Of a DNA stretch of 64,000 nucleotides, positions 1,593 through 51,225 are shown in pieces. Source of the DNA: an uncultured Pseudobdellovibrionaceae bacterium (GTDB lineage: Bacteria; Bdellovibrionota; FAC87; UBA2466); NCBI GenBank assembly GCA_964604555.1, contig CAZRZK010000011.1, positions 14,732 through 78,731 of the forward strand. The letters run 5' to 3'. The notes below the pieces were generated by a model. That model saw only the letters and a list, made by a program, of their open reading frames with translations, searched no databases and was not told the origin of the DNA. How positions within the stretch are numbered: the first letter of the stretch is position 1; each line of letters opens with the position of its first letter. A program made the position numbers and the translations under genes.

Positions 1593-2840
1593 TTAATAAA
1601 CATATTGATAAGTATCGCAATAGGCGGTGGAGCCTGCCGCATCTTCCACTCTTACCTGCAGCTGATAAATTCCCGAGTAGGGGAAGTAGAGACTCGCCGT
1701 TAAGTCTCCGGTGTAATATCCGCTAATTCCGGTGTAACTGGAGAAGTAAATATCGGTAATGCGCACGGGAGAGACCCCATAACCAGAAGGAATGGTCGCG
1801 GTTAAATTCACATAAGACCCAGCATAAGAAGAGCTCGGGCTCGTCGAAAGGGTGCAATAAATGTAGGAGGGCTGCAATGTGAAGTAGAAGGATCCGGAGA
1901 AACTTCCATTTCCGTTACAGGGGACTCCACCTGCGTAAGCCACGGCCGTTACTGACTTATAGCCGCTCGTAGAATAGGTAACGGTTAAGGGGTTCGATAA
2001 GATCGAATAGGTTCCGCCGTTTCCTGCTGAAAATGAGCTGAAGGTGACCGCTTGTCCAGTGCTAGAGGTTGCAGTAAAGACGACAGTATTTCCAGAGGTG
2101 ACATAATTTAAAGTGCACGAAGGATAGGTGGTGCTTGAACCTTGAACTGTGACCGAAGTGCTGCAACTTCTTTGCTCTCCTCGACTATCGACCACTGAAG
2201 CTAAGATCGATTGAGTCCCAGCATTAGGGAACCGCACCGTTGCAGTTGCCTGCGTCGAAGAAAGAGTGCTCAGCGGACTTGTGACGATGGCAGAGCCACT
2301 AATGTTAAGTGAAGTGAAAGTAAAAGGGCCGCTTCCCCAGCCGGAGCTGGTGGAGAGGGTTAAAACGGTGTCTTGATTTACCGAAGGAAAACTTTGGCTT
2401 AATGAAATCGTGCAGCTATTGCCAGTAGAAGGAGGTGTAGTTCCTCCCGAAGTAGAAAAGGTGCAACTAGTGCTCGCTTGAGTGGAGTTATCCACAATCG
2501 AAACGGAACCGGAGCTGCTAGAAGAAACAGAAGAGCTATAGGTAGCCGTTACGCTCGTAGAACTTGAAAAGGTGGTGGTGCCACTGATGTTCGTGGCATT
2601 TTGGCTCGATAAAGTGATCGAGGTGATGCGGTATGAACCGGATCCTCCAGAGGCGCTAATCGAAAGCGGAATTTGATTGGAACTTGGGGTTGAGGCAAGG
2701 CTGGCAGTGCAAGATAGCGACGTTCCACCGGCCGGGGGATTTGGCGTCCCGCCCCCATCATCATTGGGCTCAGTGCTACTGGAACAGCCAATGGCTAAGA
2801 AAAGCACCAAGATAGAAAAGAATTGAAACGCAACTTTCAT
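1593..2840 (-). CDS. Ser/Thr-rich repetitive lipoprotein, adhesin-like surface protein
   Basis: Lipoprotein-type signal (MKVAFQFFSILVLFLAIGCSS). About 45% of residues are S/T, in repeated beta-sandwich-like modules with paired Cys. There is no enzymatic motif. Confidence 0.5.
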   Translation of the reverse strand: MKVAFQFFSILVLFLAIGCSSSTEPNDDGGGTPNPPAGGTSLSCTASLASTPSSNQIPLSISASGGSGSYRITSITLSSQNATNISGTTTFSSSTSVTATYSSSVSSSSSGSVSIVDNSTQASTSCTFSTSGGTTPPSTGNSCTISLSQSFPSVNQDTVLTLSTSSGWGSGPFTFTSLNISGSAIVTSPLSTLSSTQATATVRFPNAGTQSILASVVDSRGEQRSCSTSVTVQGSSTTYPSCTLNYVTSGNTVVFTATSSTGQAVTFSSFSAGNGGTYSILSNPLTVTYSTSGYKSVTAVAYAGGVPCNGNGSFSGSFYFTLQPSYIYCTLSTSPSSSYAGSYVNLTATIPSGYGVSPVRITDIYFSSYTGISGYYTGDLTASLYFPYSGIYQLQVRVEDAAGSTAYCDTYQYVY

Positions 2841-2979
2841 ACACGATCCCCTTTACTCAGAGGTCTTTAAAAGCAAGGGGGGTGCCATCGAAATTGAGCC
2901 TGAAATGAAGTTCGATTTTGTAGATCGAATTGACGGATTCCAAAAGAATTCGGTGTATACGGCAGAGAATAGGGCTGTT

Positions 2980-7776: not shown

Positions 7777-8517
7777 ATGGCATTCCACATCAAAGGTTAT
7801 GGCGTAACTGATATAGGACTCAAACGGAAGATCAACCAGGACGCCTTTCTATTGGACGACACGCTCCAGCTTTATGTGGTAGCAGATGGAATGGGAGGGC
7901 ACCGAGGGGGAGAGGTAGCCAGCCAAATGGCAGTGGAAACTCTTCAAAAGTTTTGCCAGGAAAGCAGCTCCCTTTCACCGCAAAACCTCCTTCAACAGGG
8001 GATTAATCTCGCTTGTCAGAAGATCCACGCCGAATCCCAAACCAATGAAGAGCTCAATGGCATGGGCACCACCGTCATCGCCATGCTCTTTGCAAAGGAC
8101 ACCGTCTATATCGGACAGGTGGGAGACAGCCGTGCTTACCTTTTACAAAAAGGGGGCGTGTGGCAGCTGACCGAGGATCATTCTCTCCTTAACGAAGAGA
8201 TTCGGGCGGGAAGACTTTCCGCGGATGAAGCGGAAAATTATAAATTTAAAAATGTGATCACCCGGTCGGTCGGATATGAAGGAAGAGTGACGGTGGATGT
8301 TTACCGTCGGCGCCTCAAAGCTGGGGATCGATTCCTGGCCTGTACCGATGGGCTTTCTGGGTTGGTCACCTCCGATGAAATTCAGAAAATGATCGAAAAA
8401 CATGGTTTAGAAGAAGGACAAAAAAAGCTCATCCAACTCGCCAATGATCGCGGTGGAGATGATAATATTACCCTCGTGACGGTAGAAGTAAAACTTGACC
8501 CTGAGAAGGCAGAGTGA
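7777..8517 (+). CDS. PP2C-family Ser/Thr protein phosphatase
   Basis: PP2C motifs are present: VADGMGGHRGGEVAS, GTTV, DSR, CTDGL, GGDDNITLVTVEV. Confidence 0.8.
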   Translation: MAFHIKGYGVTDIGLKRKINQDAFLLDDTLQLYVVADGMGGHRGGEVASQMAVETLQKFCQESSSLSPQNLLQQGINLACQKIHAESQTNEELNGMGTTVIAMLFAKDTVYIGQVGDSRAYLLQKGGVWQLTEDHSLLNEEIRAGRLSADEAENYKFKNVITRSVGYEGRVTVDVYRRRLKAGDRFLACTDGLSGLVTSDEIQKMIEKHGLEEGQKKLIQLANDRGGDDNITLVTVEVKLDPEKAE

Positions 8518-12585: not shown

Positions 12586-14187
12586 ATGAAAACACGATGG
12601 ATGCTCCTCGCTTCGATAGTTTTATTGGTTGTCTCGGGTATTTCGGCCTATCTCTTCGGGTTTGTCCCCTGGATGTGGCAAGCTTCGCTCGGTTTAGGCG
12701 TGGCTCTTCTATTGGGATATCTTTTTACGCAACGGAGTTTTTATAAAGAATCGTTAGGGAAGAAAACGACCCAATATGGATTGAATTCAATTGTGATGGC
12801 AGTGCTCGCTACGGGCGTCTTTGCAATGATCAACACCATTGTTGCTCAGCACGATCTCAAGAAGGATTTTACAAAAAATAAACTCCATACCCTTTCTGAT
12901 CAGACGGTAAAGGTGCTTCAAGGCTTAAAGAGCGAAGTGGTGTTAAAAGCCTTTGTCGAGGTGAATCAGCTCCAGGCCTTCGATGCAGTGCTTTCGAAAT
13001 ACACCTACCTTTCCAAGCTGGTGAAACGGGAGTTTGTCGACGCCGATAAAGATCCAATGCTCGCCAAGCAATATAAAATAAAACAAGAGGGGGTCATCAT
13101 CGTTGAGAGCCAGAACCGCAGCTCTCGCATTGAAAATGTGTTTGGCCCGGATGATCCCAAGATCGAAGAGAAAATCACCAACGCCATCATCTCGGTTTCT
13201 AAAGGAGAGAAGAAAAAGGTCTATTTCATTACCGGCCATGGTGAAAAGCTAGTTTCTGACAACGGTCGTGAAGGCTTTTCCGATGTGAAAGAAGCCCTGG
13301 GAAGTTCTCTCTATCAAGTCGAAGAACTCCTCATCGTTGATAAGGAGAAAATCCCTGCCGATGCCGAAGTGGTTGTGCTCGCGGGGCCAAAATCGGATTT
13401 AATGGAGCATGAACTCAAGATGCTGGAGAGTTACGTGCTTGCGGGAGGAAAACTTTTTGTGATGGTGGAACCGAATGGGACTCCCAGCTTAAAAGGATTC
13501 CTCGCGAAGTTTGGTGCCGATTGGAAGGTAAAGAAAACTATCTTTGAAACCAATCGCCTTCAACAATTGGCCGGAGGCAATCCACTTACTCCCGTTGTGA
13601 CTACCTACACCCCCGGTCATCAGATCACCCAAGAGGCAAAACAGATGACGATCTTTGCGATTGCTACGCCAATCGAAAAGGCTGCCACCACTCCAAATGG
13701 ATATAAAGTGGAATCCCTCTTTTCGACCAGTCCTCGCAGCTTAGAAGTGGAGATGCAGGGGGATAAGGTAAAGGTAAATGAAAAGACCGATCGCAAAGGG
13801 CCCATCTCTTTAGCTCTCGCAATCTCTGGAAAGGCAATCGTTCCCGGAGCAAAACCGGAAGCCAAAACCCAAGATAAAGAAGACAAGAAACCAGGAGAAG
13901 AGGAAAAGAAAGAACAGGAATTTCGCCTCTTAGTCGTGGGCGACACCGACTTCGGAAGCAACAATCTACGTCGATTCGGCATGAACGCCGATCTGTTTCA
14001 GAATATGGTGAGCTGGCTGTCGAAGGATGAAGACTTGATCTCCATCCGTCCGAAACCAACCAATACCAGCGAGTGGGAGATCACCGAAGAGCGGTTCCGT
14101 ATCATCAACTTGGCGTCCATTTGGATTATGCCTCCGATGATGTTTATTGCGGGATTAGTGGTGTGGCTTACACGTCGTCGGAAATAA
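12586..14187 (+). CDS. gldG: GldG-like ABC transporter auxiliary component
   Basis: 533 aa with N- and C-terminal TM anchors and a large periplasmic domain, matching the GldG family architecture. It follows the gldA/gldF-like genes. Confidence 0.55.
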   Translation: MKTRWMLLASIVLLVVSGISAYLFGFVPWMWQASLGLGVALLLGYLFTQRSFYKESLGKKTTQYGLNSIVMAVLATGVFAMINTIVAQHDLKKDFTKNKLHTLSDQTVKVLQGLKSEVVLKAFVEVNQLQAFDAVLSKYTYLSKLVKREFVDADKDPMLAKQYKIKQEGVIIVESQNRSSRIENVFGPDDPKIEEKITNAIISVSKGEKKKVYFITGHGEKLVSDNGREGFSDVKEALGSSLYQVEELLIVDKEKIPADAEVVVLAGPKSDLMEHELKMLESYVLAGGKLFVMVEPNGTPSLKGFLAKFGADWKVKKTIFETNRLQQLAGGNPLTPVVTTYTPGHQITQEAKQMTIFAIATPIEKAATTPNGYKVESLFSTSPRSLEVEMQGDKVKVNEKTDRKGPISLALAISGKAIVPGAKPEAKTQDKEDKKPGEEEKKEQEFRLLVVGDTDFGSNNLRRFGMNADLFQNMVSWLSKDEDLISIRPKPTNTSEWEITEERFRIINLASIWIMPPMMFIAGLVVWLTRRRK

Positions 14188-14557
14188 CAGAATAGCGATC
14201 CTGTCCATAATCAGGCGAGAGCACAACCCATTCTTTTTCTGTAGTGGCTGGAAGAAACTTACCATTTGCCACAAAATAGACTGGCTTATTCAATGCGGTC
14301 CAAAATGCTCTAAGCGTTGCATAAGCAATCCGAAGACCCGTGTAACTACCCGGTCCAAGGGGAGCTACAAATCCATCGAGCTCTTCGAGTTTCAGCCCAC
14401 TTTGATTTAAGGCATTCTCAATTTCCGATAACAACAACTCCGAATGTTTCATTGCAGCTGGGTAATGGTGAACTTGTGCGGATGATGGGATCTCTAAGGA
14501 AGAAAGGATAGCAATCTTTCCTACCTGCTCAGTAAGATCTAGCCAGAGATAATGCAT
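14168..14557 (-). CDS. tsaB: TsaB/YeaZ-like protein (short; possibly truncated tRNA t6A biosynthesis partner)
   Basis: The LWLDLT...GKIAILS...LDGFVAPLGPGSYTGLRIAYATLRAF pattern matches the TsaB N-domain. The ORF is only 129 aa. Its 3' end overlaps gldG by 20 bp. Confidence 0.45.
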   Translation of the reverse strand: MHYLWLDLTEQVGKIAILSSLEIPSSAQVHHYPAAMKHSELLLSEIENALNQSGLKLEELDGFVAPLGPGSYTGLRIAYATLRAFWTALNKPVYFVANGKFLPATTEKEWVVLSPDYGQDRYSVISDDV

Positions 14558-16497: not shown

Positions 16498-17163
16498 ATG
16501 AAATCCTATTCCATCACACGTCAAGGGAAGCGCTCCGAAAATCAAGATTCCTATTTCTGTGATGATAAGAATGGAATCTACGCCGTTGCCGATGGGGTCG
16601 GCGGTGGCGAGCTCGGAGATGTCGCCTCTCAGCTGGCAATCCAACTTTTTTCGGAAGGGGCGTCTCAGGGGCAACCCTTTGTCGAGGTTTGGGCTAGGAT
16701 TCACGAAGCGGTGACGAAAGCTTCATTCGAAAGGTTTAATGAACCGGTAATGGGCACCACCCTCACCGGGATTTCGATCGAGGGGTCTCAGGTCAAGATT
16801 GGTCATATCGGCGATACGCGTCTCTATGTTTACCAAGAAGGCTTATTGCGTCAGTTGACGCACGATCAAGAATCCTATGATGAACGATCAGGGCATACCG
16901 TACTCATGTCATTTCTCGGAATGGACAGCCGCCACTTTCAGATTGAGATCGTCGAAGACAGCTTCATTTTAGAACCCAAAGATAAGCTTCTTCTGTGCAG
17001 CGACGGTCTTTCCAAGCAGCTCAGCGAGATTACCATGTCTGGAATTATTAAGAGCTATGAAGCGCAACCTCAGCAGTTGGTTGAAATGCTGGCAAATCGA
17101 GCCGAGATCCATGAGCAATCGGATAATGTGACGCTGATTTGGGTGGAGCCTTTTTCAATATAG
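16498..17163 (+). CDS. PP2C-family Ser/Thr phosphatase (second copy)
   Basis: ADGVGGGELGDVAS, GTTL, GDTR, CSDGL and DNVTLIWVE motifs. Confidence 0.75.
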   Translation: MKSYSITRQGKRSENQDSYFCDDKNGIYAVADGVGGGELGDVASQLAIQLFSEGASQGQPFVEVWARIHEAVTKASFERFNEPVMGTTLTGISIEGSQVKIGHIGDTRLYVYQEGLLRQLTHDQESYDERSGHTVLMSFLGMDSRHFQIEIVEDSFILEPKDKLLLCSDGLSKQLSEITMSGIIKSYEAQPQQLVEMLANRAEIHEQSDNVTLIWVEPFSI

Positions 17164-19678
17164 ACCTTACTCCATTTCCAATAATCTGCGCTGCCTGTTT
17201 TGCCTGCTCCGGAGTGTGTGTCGCCATGACTTGCAGGCGGAAGCGGCTTGCTCCTAAAGGGACCACCGGATATTCGATGATCATCGCCGCTAATTGAGCT
17301 TCAGTCATTGCACGGTGGCAGAGTCGCGCCTTCCGTTCTGAACCAATAAACACCGGAACGATAGGCCCCGGAGCTCCGAAGCAGAGTTGCCCCTCCTTCA
17401 TAAGTTCGGACCTTAACACCGTTACTGCAGCGTGAAGTTTTTCCCGTAGAAGCGCCCCTTTCGGAGATCGAATAATCTGGCAGGCCTTGAGGGCGATGGC
17501 CGTCTGAATGGGCGAAAGGGCGTTCGAAAAAAGATGAGCCGAGCTAAACATCTTCAGATAATGGATCAGAGCTTTACTATCGGTAGCGACAAATCCCCCA
17601 TTAGTGGCAAAGCTTTTGGAGAAGCTGCCCATCACAATGTCGATCTTTCCGTACATTCCTTGCACGCCCATTTGGCCTCTTCCTTCAGGACCTGTGGCCC
17701 CTAAGTCATGGGCGACATCGACAAAGAGGAAGGCATTATATTGATGGGCAATCTCCTGAAATTTTTTCAGGTCTGGAGAATCGGCATCCATTGAAAAAAG
17801 TCCTTCAGTAATCAGAAGGATCGCGTTTTTGGTATCCCGTTTGCGAATCGCCCGCAACATGGCTCGAGCAGCATCGGGATCGAGATGAGCGTAGCGGTGG
17901 ACCTTCCGGGTTGCCGCCCTGGCCCCTTGCTGGAGGCAAGCGTGGGTGAGCCGGTCCATCACTATGTGATCCTGGGGTTTTACGATACCAATAATCGATC
18001 CGAAGCCGGCGGCATAGCCTGTCGCAAATAGGAGCACATATTTCTTGCCGGTCAGGATTTTTAATTCTTCCTCCAGTTCATGGGTTAAGAGAGTGTTTCC
18101 GATAATCATCGGGGATCCCGCACTATGGGGACCAAACTTTGAAATTGACTCGATAGCTGCCTGGGCAATTTCGGGATCTTGTCCTAATCCCAGATAATCT
18201 TGGGAAGCGAAATTGATCCCCTCGATCTTTCTTCCCGAATTATCGCTGAGAAGGGTGGTGTTGGCCGCAATTCGATGGAGCGTGCGGGAGTATTGGAACA
18301 TTCCTTTCTGCTCTCGGCGTTGGTAGAAATCATAATAGGGCTGTGTTCGTTCAAAAAGGTCTGGCCCAAAATGTTGGGAGTAGTCGAAACAGTTCTGTTC
18401 AAGGGCAAGATCAGGTGGTTCAGTGCTAAATGGATTTTGATAAACGGAACTAGAGATCCCAATCGGTTCTAAAGGAGTGGTATCGATAAGTCTTTCGAGC
18501 CTCCGCGCTTCAAAAAATTCCCGCACCGGAACCACATCGAAATAGAGCCCGATAAAACGATTCCGCTCTTCAGAAGAGTTAGAAATCGCTCGATAGAGCC
18601 TTTTTTCATCCGGTCGGAGCGGATTCATCTCCGCTTGTTGAGTCGTGAATTCATAAAAACGGAAGAGGTCCACTGAACGACGGTCTTCGAAGTCTCTAAT
18701 GGCCTCTCCCTTCAATTTTTTTCCACCAAAGAAATTTTGCAGCTCTTCAGAAAGGAGGAAGGCATCTCGCAGTGCATGGGTCATTCCATTGGCCGTACAC
18801 TGATCTTTAAAGCAATGAGCATCACCGATGAGCGGTGCCTGTGGCGAGCTTTTTCGAATAAAGGGCTGCTGATCTACCGTCAACCGAAACGGTTCTACTC
18901 TGCAAGCAGAAGAGACCATCTTACGATGGAATTCAGGATCAATGATTTGGAGTGCTTTGAAGAAATGAAATTCCTTTTCCCTTTTAAAGTCCTCATAAAA
19001 AGAGTCGGGACCAAAGACCAGTACCATTGTGTTCCCATCATTGGTCGGAACAGCCGCAAAGCTCAGTCGATTTCTCTTTTTTAAGAGCGCATGCGGGAGT
19101 TCAAGCCCCTTGAAATAAGAATAGCAGGCAAAGGTGCAGTGGTGGCGTTCTTCCATCTTTGAAACTTGGAAGTGTTCCGCAACGGTGGAGTTTTTACCAT
19201 CGGCTCCGACACAAATCTCGGTTCCCTCTAGGAGTTCTTCGGTAAAAGGAGTTCCCAAGCGAAGCTCAGCCCCTGATTTTACCGCCTCTTCCTGGAGCAA
19301 TTTATCTAAAAAGGCACGGCGGATGCAGGTGTATCGGGGATCCAATTTAAAAATTTCATTCGGGTGAACTGTTTCAAAGCGTCGTTGGAGATCATTTTCA
19401 GAGAGCGAGCCACCCAGGGCAATTTCATCCACACTCACCTCAAAATGGTGGAAAGCAGGGGTTTCCTTTAATACCGCTTCCGCAATTCCCAGAGAATGGA
19501 GATAGGTGAGCCCACGCGCATTCATAAAGTGGGTTGAAAGCACATCGTGCGTCTCATTCATTTTATCGACAAGGAGAACTTTTAACCCCGCCCTGGCAAG
19601 TCGGATGGCGGTGGCCGATCCGGCAATTCTGGCCCCAATGATAGTAACATCATACTGTTTCATAAAACCCCTTCCCAT
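17048..19678 (-). CDS. fusion protein: N-terminal FAD-dependent oxidoreductase domain + C-terminal alpha-oxoamine synthase (AONS/SPT/KBL/CqsA family, PLP)
   Basis: The N-terminus has the GxGxxG dinucleotide fold (DVTIIGARIAGSATAIRLARAGLKVLLVDK). The C-terminal ~400 aa has the class II aminotransferase pattern with PLP lysine GSFSKSF, DVAHDLG and DYLGLG. About 120 aa of linker separate the two domains. Confidence 0.7.
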   Translation of the reverse strand: MGRGFMKQYDVTIIGARIAGSATAIRLARAGLKVLLVDKMNETHDVLSTHFMNARGLTYLHSLGIAEAVLKETPAFHHFEVSVDEIALGGSLSENDLQRRFETVHPNEIFKLDPRYTCIRRAFLDKLLQEEAVKSGAELRLGTPFTEELLEGTEICVGADGKNSTVAEHFQVSKMEERHHCTFACYSYFKGLELPHALLKKRNRLSFAAVPTNDGNTMVLVFGPDSFYEDFKREKEFHFFKALQIIDPEFHRKMVSSACRVEPFRLTVDQQPFIRKSSPQAPLIGDAHCFKDQCTANGMTHALRDAFLLSEELQNFFGGKKLKGEAIRDFEDRRSVDLFRFYEFTTQQAEMNPLRPDEKRLYRAISNSSEERNRFIGLYFDVVPVREFFEARRLERLIDTTPLEPIGISSSVYQNPFSTEPPDLALEQNCFDYSQHFGPDLFERTQPYYDFYQRREQKGMFQYSRTLHRIAANTTLLSDNSGRKIEGINFASQDYLGLGQDPEIAQAAIESISKFGPHSAGSPMIIGNTLLTHELEEELKILTGKKYVLLFATGYAAGFGSIIGIVKPQDHIVMDRLTHACLQQGARAATRKVHRYAHLDPDAARAMLRAIRKRDTKNAILLITEGLFSMDADSPDLKKFQEIAHQYNAFLFVDVAHDLGATGPEGRGQMGVQGMYGKIDIVMGSFSKSFATNGGFVATDSKALIHYLKMFSSAHLFSNALSPIQTAIALKACQIIRSPKGALLREKLHAAVTVLRSELMKEGQLCFGAPGPIVPVFIGSERKARLCHRAMTEAQLAAMIIEYPVVPLGASRFRLQVMATHTPEQAKQAAQIIGNGVRSILKKAPPKSASHYPIAHGSRLDLPAFQPTAEVALHSS

Positions 19679-19679
19679 T

Positions 19680-19791
19680 GCTTCGCTGAAAAAGTGTCAT
19701 CTGCTTCGTCATCGATGATTTTCACAAAGGTACGGCCTACCTTTGTGAAAATCATCTTGGTTCCTCGCATTTGGCACTTTTTCAGCGAAGC
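19680..19791. promoter_or_regulatory. nested perfect palindromes in the divergent promoter region between the FAD-AONS gene and lysR
   Basis: An outer 17-bp inverted repeat gcttcgctgaaaaagtg/cactttttcagcgaagc encloses an inner 19-bp inverted repeat gatgattttcacaaaggta/tacctttgtgaaaatcatc with a 5-nt loop. Confidence 0.5.
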
Positions 19792-19864
19792 ACCATCTAA
19801 TTACTCATTCATAGATGATGGAATTGGTTTCTAAAAGTCCTTTATGGTAAATGTTTGGTTAGCA

Positions 19865-20743
19865 ATGGAGACCAATCGTTTAAGACAGTTCAAAGTCCTT
19901 GTCGAAACGAAACACCTCCGTCGTGCGGCCGAACTGCTCTCCATTTCCCATGGAGGTCTTTATAAATCCTTAAAGCAATTGGAAGAGGAATTGGGTTTCC
20001 CTCTTTTCTTTTCTCAGGGGAAGCGAATTGAAATCACTCCGAAAGGGTTGGAGATCTATCGACAGATTCCAGCAATTTTATCGGCGGTGGATGGAATTTT
20101 TAAATCAAAATCGGAGATCAGCACCCACCAAACGCTTACGCTCGGGACTTTTGAAGTTTTTAGCACCCATCTTTTAGGGCCGCTCTTTAAACAGGATACG
20201 TGGCAGGAAATTCATTTGAGATTAGTAGAATTGGTCCCGGGAGAGTTGGAGTTAGCCATTAAATCGGGCGAGGTGGATCTGGGAATAACCTACCTTCCCA
20301 TTCCAACCCGTGGTGTGGAGTTTGATAAGGTGGCACATCTGCGTATGGGAGTTTATGGCCGGAAAGGGGCTTTTCAAAAGCAGTCCTCTGAGAAACTTCC
20401 GTTTGTGATCCCGATTCGTCCTTTAAAAGGAACTCCCACTGGAGTTCGAGGGCTTGATGGCTGGCCAGAACAGGAGGTTCCCCGGCAGGTGGTTTATGAA
20501 GTCACCCTGATGGAGTCGGCATTGGAGTTGGTTCGTCAGGGACGAGCAGTGGTCTATTTACCAGAGCCGGTAGCGCGCGAACATAATCTGAAAATCAGAG
20601 CCCCCTTTGAATTGGTTGAGATCCAAGCCTTTCCAAAGTTGCCAGTGGTAAAACGGGATATCTTTATTGTGAGGCTTGAGGGACGGCAGGAAGGTAAGAT
20701 AGAGAAGCAATTGGCCTCAGCTTTGCGAATACTTGTACGATAA
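19865..20743 (+). CDS. LysR-family transcriptional regulator
   Basis: N-terminal HTH (LRQFKVLVETKHLRRAAELLSISHGGLYKSLKQLEEELG) plus a substrate-binding domain. It is divergent from the FAD-AONS gene. The start is taken as the internal ATG at 19865. Confidence 0.8.
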   Translation: METNRLRQFKVLVETKHLRRAAELLSISHGGLYKSLKQLEEELGFPLFFSQGKRIEITPKGLEIYRQIPAILSAVDGIFKSKSEISTHQTLTLGTFEVFSTHLLGPLFKQDTWQEIHLRLVELVPGELELAIKSGEVDLGITYLPIPTRGVEFDKVAHLRMGVYGRKGAFQKQSSEKLPFVIPIRPLKGTPTGVRGLDGWPEQEVPRQVVYEVTLMESALELVRQGRAVVYLPEPVAREHNLKIRAPFELVEIQAFPKLPVVKRDIFIVRLEGRQEGKIEKQLASALRILVR

Positions 20744-23591: not shown

Positions 23592-23873
23592 ATGGCCAAG
23601 AAAATCTATGTCGGAAATTTAAGTTATGACGTATCGGACGATGAGTTACACCAACTTTTCAGCCAATGCGGACAGGTATCAGAAGCAAAAATCATCAAAG
23701 ATAGAGACACCGGAAGATCCAAAGGCTTTGGGTTTGTAGAAATGCCCAATGACGAAGAGGCCACCCATGCCATCGATCGGATGCAAGGGCATGATTTTAA
23801 GGGGCGTCCGCTACAAGTCGATGAGGCGAAGGAAAACACCGGCGCTCGTGGTGGGGTTCGGCGGCGGGGTTAA
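23592..23873 (+). CDS. RRM-type RNA-binding protein
   Basis: RNP2 KIYVGNL and RNP1 KGFGFVEM, followed by a Gly/Arg-rich tail. Confidence 0.8.
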   Translation: MAKKIYVGNLSYDVSDDELHQLFSQCGQVSEAKIIKDRDTGRSKGFGFVEMPNDEEATHAIDRMQGHDFKGRPLQVDEAKENTGARGGVRRRG

Positions 23874-50373: not shown

Positions 50374-51225
50374 TCAGGCAGAAATATGCGTCGCTGCTAG
50401 AACGCTCTTACAGCCTCTGGATCGGAAGGATTCAGAGAATACTTGAGAGATTTCTTCACATTTTGCGGCATCCCTGAACGCGGCAAAACAGACCGAGCCA
50501 CTGCCTGTTATAGAGCAGTAATCTGGCGAGGTTGAACGCAGCATGTCTAAGATCGATTTGAGCTCGGGGTAAAGTTGAATGGCGGCCGGTTCTAAAGAGT
50601 TTTGGAGGCCTGTGAGAGAGGAAGCATCCAGTTTTGGTGCAAAAGGCATCTGGAGTTCCCGAAACACTTTAAATACCTCTGCGGTCCACAAAGGTTTGGG
50701 GGGGATTACTAAATAAAAAAATAAGGGGGTTGGATTTACTAAAGGCATTCGATGTTCACCTATTCCCGAAACAAAACTAGGAACCGGGTTTAAAAAGAAC
50801 GGCACATCGGCCCCCAATTTAGAGGCTTCAACGCTGTCATATTGAGGTCGGAAGTGAGAAAGCAGAGTTCCCGCATTTGAAGAGCCTCCTCCTAAGCCGG
50901 CCCCAACCGGGATTCTTTTCTGGATCTCAATCGCGAACCCGTTCATATTTAGCAATTCGAGTGTTTTATAAGCGATATTTTCCGATTGCTGCGGCAGCGA
51001 ACTTCCATTTTCGGAGGAGTCTGCCCAACGGCAGGTGACCCAGTTGGATTGGGTTTCATTTTTTTTGACGAGAATCTGATCGTAAAGAGTAATAGGCCAG
51101 AAGAGACTCTCCAATTCGTGAAAACCATTTTCACGACGACCCACCACATGGAGTCCCAGATTCAATTTAGCGGGCGATTTAAGGGTGTTATTCCCTCGAC
51201 AGTTGTCTGACAAACAATCGGACAT
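50374..51225 (-). CDS. ispE: 4-diphosphocytidyl-2-C-methyl-D-erythritol kinase
   Basis: GHMP kinase motif PVGAGLGGGSSNA and the AKLNLGLHV N-terminus. Confidence 0.8.
   Translation of the reverse strand: MSDCLSDNCRGNNTLKSPAKLNLGLHVVGRRENGFHELESLFWPITLYDQILVKKNETQSNWVTCRWADSSENGSSLPQQSENIAYKTLELLNMNGFAIEIQKRIPVGAGLGGGSSNAGTLLSHFRPQYDSVEASKLGADVPFFLNPVPSFVSGIGEHRMPLVNPTPLFFYLVIPPKPLWTAEVFKVFRELQMPFAPKLDASSLTGLQNSLEPAAIQLYPELKSILDMLRSTSPDYCSITGSGSVCFAAFRDAAKCEEISQVFSESFRSRGCKSVLAATHISA

Follow-up and report, generated by a model that had tools for sequence, protein, structure and literature searches.

The palindrome located between the divergently transcribed genes of a LysR-family regulator and an FAD-AOS fusion enzyme (an FAD-dependent oxidoreductase joined to a class I/II aminotransferase of the alpha-oxoamine-synthase type) is, on balance, best explained as a 114-bp, non-coding, MITE-like insertion into a compact control region, probably transcribed as a hairpin in the leader of the FAD-AOS mRNA. 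The element most likely belongs to an ordinary class of features and is not a novel regulatory device, and a conserved LysR operator is not supported. The original prediction had placed the palindrome in the divergent lysR/FAD-AOS region, which the gene calls bear out (FAD-AOS on the minus strand, LysR on the plus strand), and had offered several possible identities for it. The TG...CA ends of the element, the CCAT repeat at its borders and four orthologous regions of 65–88 bp without a palindrome favor one of these identities, a miniature inserted element; the proposed multi-site operator gained no support.

Both the reading of the sequence and a repeat finder recovered the outer inverted repeat described originally (GCTTCGCTGAAAAAGTG at 19680–19696 and CACTTTTTCAGCGAAGC at 19775–19791; 17/17 perfect), and one extra pair (T19679/A19792) extended the perfect match to 18/18. 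Beyond these 18 pairs the outer arms continue to pair imperfectly to 26 nt (88%). The inner inverted repeat, reported as 19/19 perfect around a CGGCC loop, was likewise retrieved by both approaches. The description of the whole as a 112-bp nested perfect palindrome needs amending, however: the nested perfect repeats are there, but the element measures 114 bp and is not perfect throughout, because the 17- and 18-nt segments between the outer and inner arms are mostly non-complementary. The structure is, therefore, two concentric perfect inverted repeats and not a single perfect palindrome of 112 bp. The stems are A+T-rich and the outer arms themselves are non-palindromic. Each strand folds into one long hairpin, with values of −66.4 kcal/mol (z = −12.1) for the plus-strand RNA, −64.1 kcal/mol (z = −10.4) for the minus-strand RNA and −42 (z = −12.0) for the DNA, and in all three cases none of 200 shuffled sequences folded as well. 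In the 64-kb window (the whole stretch of DNA analyzed), no other inverted repeat has perfect arms of 14 nt or longer that do not overlap and lie within 200 bp. An inverted repeat at 51055/51325 was treated as a chance occurrence, as it is driven by homopolymer runs and has one arm in coding sequence.

Arm complementarity ends exactly at 19679 and 19792, and a CCAT tetranucleotide adjoins both ends at these very positions. Identity of the 4-bp flanks at the spacing of the element occurs at 0.43% of the window positions. As a target-site duplication, the CCAT repeat is suggestive, though too short to be proof. The coordinates of these and neighboring features are listed in Table 1.

Table 1. 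Features of the hairpin element and its surroundings (window coordinates), and lengths of the orthologous intergenic regions.
Feature	Position	Strand	Description
FAD-AOS fusion gene, 871 aa	17048–19663	−	FAD_binding_3 and Aminotran_1_2 domains; ATG at 19663, MKQYDVTIIG...
Shine-Dalgarno-like GGGAAGGGG of FAD-AOS	19668–19676	−	2 nt downstream of the hairpin base; from sequence reading
Left CCAT, 4-bp direct repeat	19675–19678		Abuts the element; candidate target-site duplication
Whole hairpin element	19679–19792		TG...CA termini; GC 43.9%
Left outer arm (terminal inverted repeat)	19679–19696		TGCTTCGCTGAAAAAGTG; 18/18 perfect against the right arm
Left internal segment, 17 nt	19697–19713		Internal loop in the fold
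Inner hairpin	19714–19756		19-bp arms 19714–19732 and 19738–19756; loop CGGCC 19733–19737
Right internal segment, 18 nt	19757–19774		Mostly non-complementary to the left segment
Sigma-54-like motif TGGCACTTTTTCAGC	19772–19786	+	Candidate; spans the inner edge of the right arm and points to lysR; weak −12 (CAGC vs TTGC)
Right outer arm (terminal inverted repeat)	19775–19792		CACTTTTTCAGCGAAGCA
Right CCAT, 4-bp direct repeat	19793–19796		Abuts the element; candidate target-site duplication
Rest of intergenic region beside lysR, 68 bp	19797–19864		TGGTTTCT and TTTGGTT in common with L251; presumed ancestral promoter/operator
LysR-family regulator, 292 aa	19865–20743	+	Start METNRLRQF, same as the L251 ortholog
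Window locus, intergenic			201 bp as found; 83 bp minus the element and one CCAT (201 − 118)
L251 locus, intergenic			76 bp; also present as L250 in a second assembly
L253 locus, intergenic			86 bp
L256 locus, intergenic			65 bp
L257 locus, intergenic			88 bp

Of the intergenic region (19664–19864), the element takes up 114 bp; 15 bp separate it from the FAD-AOS gene and 72 bp from lysR. With 871 aa, compared to 872–900 aa in homologs, the FAD-AOS ORF is of full length and undisrupted, indicating that the insertion is at least tolerated. Two versions of the LysR protein are on record, one of 299 aa (P0149, NCBI-sourced) and one of 292 aa (P0001, Logan-sourced), which we read as starts at 19844 and 19865, respectively; the second start is supported by the L251 ortholog, which also begins METNRLRQF. 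The gene content of the window is that of a core chromosome and includes SerRS, NAD kinase, LptF/G, LolA, FtsK and Rho as well as the trigger factor-ClpP-ClpX-Lon genes and those for ribosomal proteins S6, S18 and L9. Subtilases, an M23 peptidase and a DUF4423 protein are also encoded. Elsewhere in the window, a 93-aa protein (23592–23873, plus strand) carries a eukaryote-type RNA-recognition motif (RRM_1, E = 9.5e-27), and two genes for PP2C-type serine/threonine phosphatases lie within 9 kb of each other (7777–8517 and 16498–17163, both plus strand). If both ORF calls are right, the second of them shares about 115 bp (17048–17163) with the 3′ end of the FAD-AOS gene, which is on the opposite strand. 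A 129-aa ORF (14168–14557, minus strand) matches only positions 25–89 of the 264-position TsaD profile; the gene may be short and TsaB-like, it may be truncated, or its start may have been called wrongly.

Sampling of this lineage is poor. Outside the same organism, the closest LysR protein among 5.8 billion sequences shares only 58% identity, and the closest FAD-AOS protein about 60%. A few more distant homologs, at least two, carry the names Bdellovibrio or Bdellovibrionaceae. Annotated homologs of FAD-AOS occur in Streptomyces and Kitasatospora, with identities of about 42%.

The pairing of the FAD-AOS fusion with a divergent LysR gene is conserved in four other uncultured lineages (L251, L253, L256 and L257), whose intergenic regions provided a reference for the control region of the window (Table 1). 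We excluded from this ortholog set the P0002 locus (58% identity in LysR), which is non-syntenic. A long inverted repeat or palindrome was sought in the intergenic regions of the four loci and found in none of them (0/4). The original prediction had named absence from orthologous loci of close relatives as the outcome that would weaken a conserved regulatory role, and such a role is indeed disfavored by these four, albeit distant, orthologs. Their LysR and FAD-AOS proteins share 46–57% and 48–60% amino-acid identity, respectively, with those of the window, a distance at which the short spacers are not equivalent to a true empty site and permit no junction-level comparison. A true empty site would read ...CCCTTCCCATCTAATTACTC... 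with a single CCAT. Removal of the element in silico leaves a lysR-proximal part that has TGGTTTCT and TTTGGTT in common with L251. Because these shared motifs persist in the lysR-proximal part after the removal, the control sequence resembling that of L251 lies outside the palindrome.

These observations suggest a sequence of events. An element with 18-bp terminal inverted repeats, TG...CA ends and a CCAT duplication would have entered a divergent region of originally about 83 bp. It would have landed 15 nt ahead of the FAD-AOS ATG, parting the ribosome-binding site from the remainder of the region. It may have been moved in trans by a DDE-type transposase. The element is probably young, judging from its perfect arms and its intact direct repeat. 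Given that only 15 bp separate the element from the ATG and that nothing promoter-like is seen in the left arm, the FAD-AOS promoter would have to be on the right-hand side of the element. The whole hairpin would then form part of the 5′ leader of the FAD-AOS mRNA, at roughly −64 kcal/mol and ending 2 nt before GGGAAGGGG. In this position, the hairpin could alter the stability or half-life of the mRNA, its processing by RNase III or the initiation of translation, and may equally be neutral. We propose these effects by analogy with the Correia elements (RNase III cleavage) and ERIC (mRNA decay). The 68 bp beside lysR, which presumably contain the promoter of lysR and the site bound by LysR, would have been left intact by the insertion.

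The hairpin is not a transcription terminator, as the original prediction had also held. A scan of positions 19550–19950 predicted no sigma-70 promoter and no terminator-like site on either strand, and no U-tract is present in the sequence that follows the stem (minus strand, AUGGGAAGG; plus strand, CCAUCUAA), which rules out an intrinsic terminator and leaves an attenuator unsupported. Hence, the suggestion of a 5′-UTR attenuator hairpin is only half retained: from the position of the insertion, the hairpin probably does reside in the leader, but the lack of a U-tract after the stem speaks against attenuation.

The properties of the element compare well with those of prokaryotic MITEs, which by definition measure less than 500 bp, carry terminal inverted repeats of about 4–30 bp, are flanked by direct repeats when young and give transcripts that form stable stem-loops (PMC10969869). 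At 114 bp, the element is below this size limit and has no coding capacity; its terminal inverted repeats (TGCTTCGCTGAAAAAGTG/CACTTTTTCAGCGAAGCA) are 18/18 perfect; it is flanked by a direct repeat, CCAT, of only 4 bp; and it forms a stable stem-loop on both strands. Strict membership in the class, which requires a repeat family and a cognate transposase, is unproven for this lone copy and we refer to it as MITE-like only. Against the MITE-like reading, the 4-bp direct repeat could arise from microhomology, the element is a lone copy in all searches, no transposase is present in the window ORFs that were scanned, and the region has no predicted sigma-70-like promoter that would account for transcription of the element.

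The searches for additional copies covered the 64-kb window, itself the only part of the source genome included, and exact 17- and 19-mer scans of sequence collections. Allowing up to 3 mismatches, both arms matched only the element itself in the window. The 17-mer of the outer arm, used as an exact seed, gave 109 single matches in 185,579 species genomes, none of them longer than 22 nt and none with a partner arm. This number is of the same order as the roughly 70 chance matches that we estimated from the size of the collection. One of the matches was in a Pseudobdellovibrionaceae MAG (L083), but it was a solo arm with no partner, located in an apparent coding sequence, and was dismissed. The 19-mer of the inner arm, also as an exact seed, produced 14 solo matches and no hairpins in JGI metagenomes, and viral contigs, plasmids and phages yielded chance matches only. 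The further copies that the original prediction had proposed to look for were, therefore, absent from the window and from the exact-seed scans of the collections, and a repeat family is not demonstrable.

Searches at the protein level led back to the same locus. A word-indexed search of protein libraries with the translated element, aimed at spurious ORFs called on other copies, gave no match. An exhaustive protein search with the translated element retrieved only P0150, whose tail (...SAKQWEGVL) is the flank of this very locus. P0150 is a 31-aa ORF in a public protein library (MIFTKVGRTFVKIIDDEADDTFSAKQWEGVL; window 19660–19755, minus strand) called across the hairpin, and almost certainly results from a false gene call in palindromic, non-coding DNA. 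Except for P0150, the translated frames of the element have no relatives, consistent with its non-coding nature. A domain scan of the 59 longest non-overlapping window ORFs (90 aa or more) and of one additional ORF detected no transposase, integrase or invertase. The terminal repeat may resemble ISL3-type or IS3-type ends, a likeness that we do not claim as an assignment.

Among the known families of bacterial hairpin elements, the Correia elements (MITEs of Neisseria) are similar in several respects: they are about 100–155 bp long, have long terminal inverted repeats, form a hairpin, insert just upstream of genes and are co-transcribed with them. RNase III cuts the stem formed by the Correia terminal inverted repeats, and these elements can also carry promoters (PMC10969869). 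Unlike the element described here, Correia elements are present in hundreds of copies, duplicate TA and contain an IHF site, whereas ours has one known copy, a 4-bp CCAT, no IHF consensus, no sigma-70-like promoter and no sequence similarity to them. All three matches to the IHF consensus in the window lie away from the element and its vicinity. MITEAba12 of Acinetobacter, with a length of about 113 bp, is another small MITE in a similar size class. Its target duplication is 9 bp, longer than CCAT. MITEAba12 also differs in having a known parent IS family and documented mobilization, and it shares no sequence similarity with the element. The copy number of MITEAba12 ranges from 1 to 22 per genome, so a family of this kind can have as few as one copy in a genome (PMC10969869). 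ERIC, RUP and other bacterial hairpin MITEs are, likewise, intergenic imperfect palindromes (100–130 bp) transcribed with their neighbors, and ERIC-type elements are described as altering mRNA decay (PMC10969869; PMC2229807). They are, however, multi-copy families conserved within a genus, in contrast to the lone copy here.

Other classes could be set aside. REP sequences are extragenic palindromes described as 20–40 bp long, G+C-rich, high-copy and marked by a GTAG or CGTC head (PMC3733652), and a REPIN pairs two inverted units in a hairpin of about 100 nt. The A+T-rich stems and the single copy in 64 kb rule out this assignment, and the sole CGTC (at 19706) is within chance. An integron attC site is also ruled out, as the ends read TGCTTCG ... 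CGAAGCA instead of RYYYAAC ... GTTRRRY and no integrase was detected in the window. The cyanobacterial HIP1 sequence (GCGATCGC) is not enriched (3 sites against 0.9 expected). Rfam 15 returned only generic hairpin models (miRNA and snoRNA) at sub-threshold scores, such as MIR2606 with 22.9 bits against a threshold of 139.7.

An alternative to insertion is that the palindrome arose in place as a large operator or cruciform for LysR or another factor, controlling one or both promoters at the DNA level. We consider this unlikely. Operators of LysR-type regulators (LTTRs) do have dyad symmetry in the region between lysR and a divergent target, and the element is indeed placed between the LysR gene and its likely target. 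Selection could also account for the perfect arms, and TCATC/GATGA pentamers recur in and beside the element (19697, 19709, 19714, 19752 and 19814). Yet an LTTR box spans about 15 bp, far less than the 114 bp of the element or its 18- and 19-bp arms, a mismatch in size that the original prediction had already recognized. The T-N11-A signature is ruled out as well: the positions 6 nt off the dyad center (19729 and 19741) are G and C, giving G-N11-C. No palindrome is conserved in L251, L253, L256 or L257, each with an intergenic region of only 65–88 bp, and the sequence that does resemble L251 beside lysR falls outside the element. An operator would also leave unexplained the CCAT direct repeat and the TG...CA ends. 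A non-mobile inverted duplication without transposase or function, created in situ by template switching or fold-back repair at CCAT microhomology, strikes us as rather improbable too. It would fit with an element that is a singleton in every search, with the absence of a transposase nearby and with a 4-bp repeat short enough for microhomology. However, fold-back copies neighboring sequence, and the arms match nothing else in the window at 3 mismatches. Furthermore, a single fold-back event produces a continuous palindrome, in contrast to the two blocks parted by unequal segments of 17 and 18 nt, and random decay of such a palindrome would scatter mismatches rather than spare blocks of 18/18 and 19/19.

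Two further explanations are much harder to defend. In one of them, for which we see very little likelihood, the element is a promoter module: either a sigma-54-type promoter (TGGCAC-N5-CAGC) drives lysR and the inner palindrome is the site of an enhancer-binding protein, or the 78-bp core inverts between the 18-bp arms and so redirects that promoter. The motif TGGCACTTTTTCAGC has the correct GG-N10-GC spacing, and the pattern TGGCAC-N7-GC occurs six times in the window (2873, 4308, 19772, 22711, 31025 and 59607) compared to 1.0 expected from dinucleotide shuffles, none of 100 of which reached six. The consensus promoter at 2873–2887 indicates that the organism probably uses sigma-54. As read from the sequence, inversion would shift the −24 element to the other side, since TGG is in the core and CAC in the arm; on the left arm, TGACAC is found at the mirror-image position. 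Against the promoter, the −12 element lacks both T residues (CAGC rather than TTGC), the motif was found post hoc and four of the six window matches are intragenic, suggesting an effect of codon composition. Against inversion, the ORF domain scan revealed no recombinase gene in the window, 78 bp is a very small core for site-specific inversion and the sole independent assembly has the same orientation. Neither version explains the perfect left arm and the CCAT repeat. Even more speculative, and hardly to be expected, is a domesticated bidirectional device, in which flipping of the core would lend the TGG of the −24 box to either arm and switch sigma-54 transcription between lysR and FAD-AOS, the arms serving as recombination or cruciform sites and the inner palindrome as an enhancer-binding-protein site. 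The last explanation, an assembly artefact in the form of a chimeric inverted join in a metagenome-assembled contig, seems to us highly improbable. The source is an NCBI contig from an uncultured lineage, and a Logan contig (L001) breaks inside the inner palindrome. Yet both flanks run into intact, correctly oriented genes, and artefactual palindromes are usually found at contig ends. Moreover, L001, from an independent assembly (SRR16481183), covers the right 71 nt, from 11 nt of the left inner arm through the loop to the end of the element (L001 positions 1–71 match window positions 19722–19792 at 100% identity), and P0150 runs from the left flank through the left arm and across the inner hairpin. 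L001 starts within the inner palindrome, 11 nt before the loop, perhaps because coverage was low or because the assembly broke at the hairpin.

The sigma-54 search also drew attention to a site unrelated to the element. The sequence TGGCACCCCCCTTGC at 2873–2887 (minus strand) is a perfect sigma-54 −24/−12 consensus located 33 nt upstream of the ATG of a 415-aa ORF (1593–2840, minus strand) with no Pfam match. An inverted repeat (TTCGAT-N7-ATCGAA, 2911–2929) lies about 25–45 nt further upstream and could be the site of an enhancer-binding protein.

The finding of a MITE-like insertion opens no long-standing question, and its value would rise only with a new MITE family, recognized from copies or a cognate transposase, or with proof of regulation by the hairpin. 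The locus also calls for care in annotation: however striking, a palindrome within a LysR control region is not necessarily the operator, because the sequence that resembles the orthologous control region falls here outside the palindrome. If our reading is right, the element adds one more small hairpin transposon to those found in bacterial 5′ leaders, in this case in a poorly sampled lineage, and its insertion may change the expression of an uncharacterized fusion of an FAD-oxidoreductase and an alpha-oxoamine synthase.
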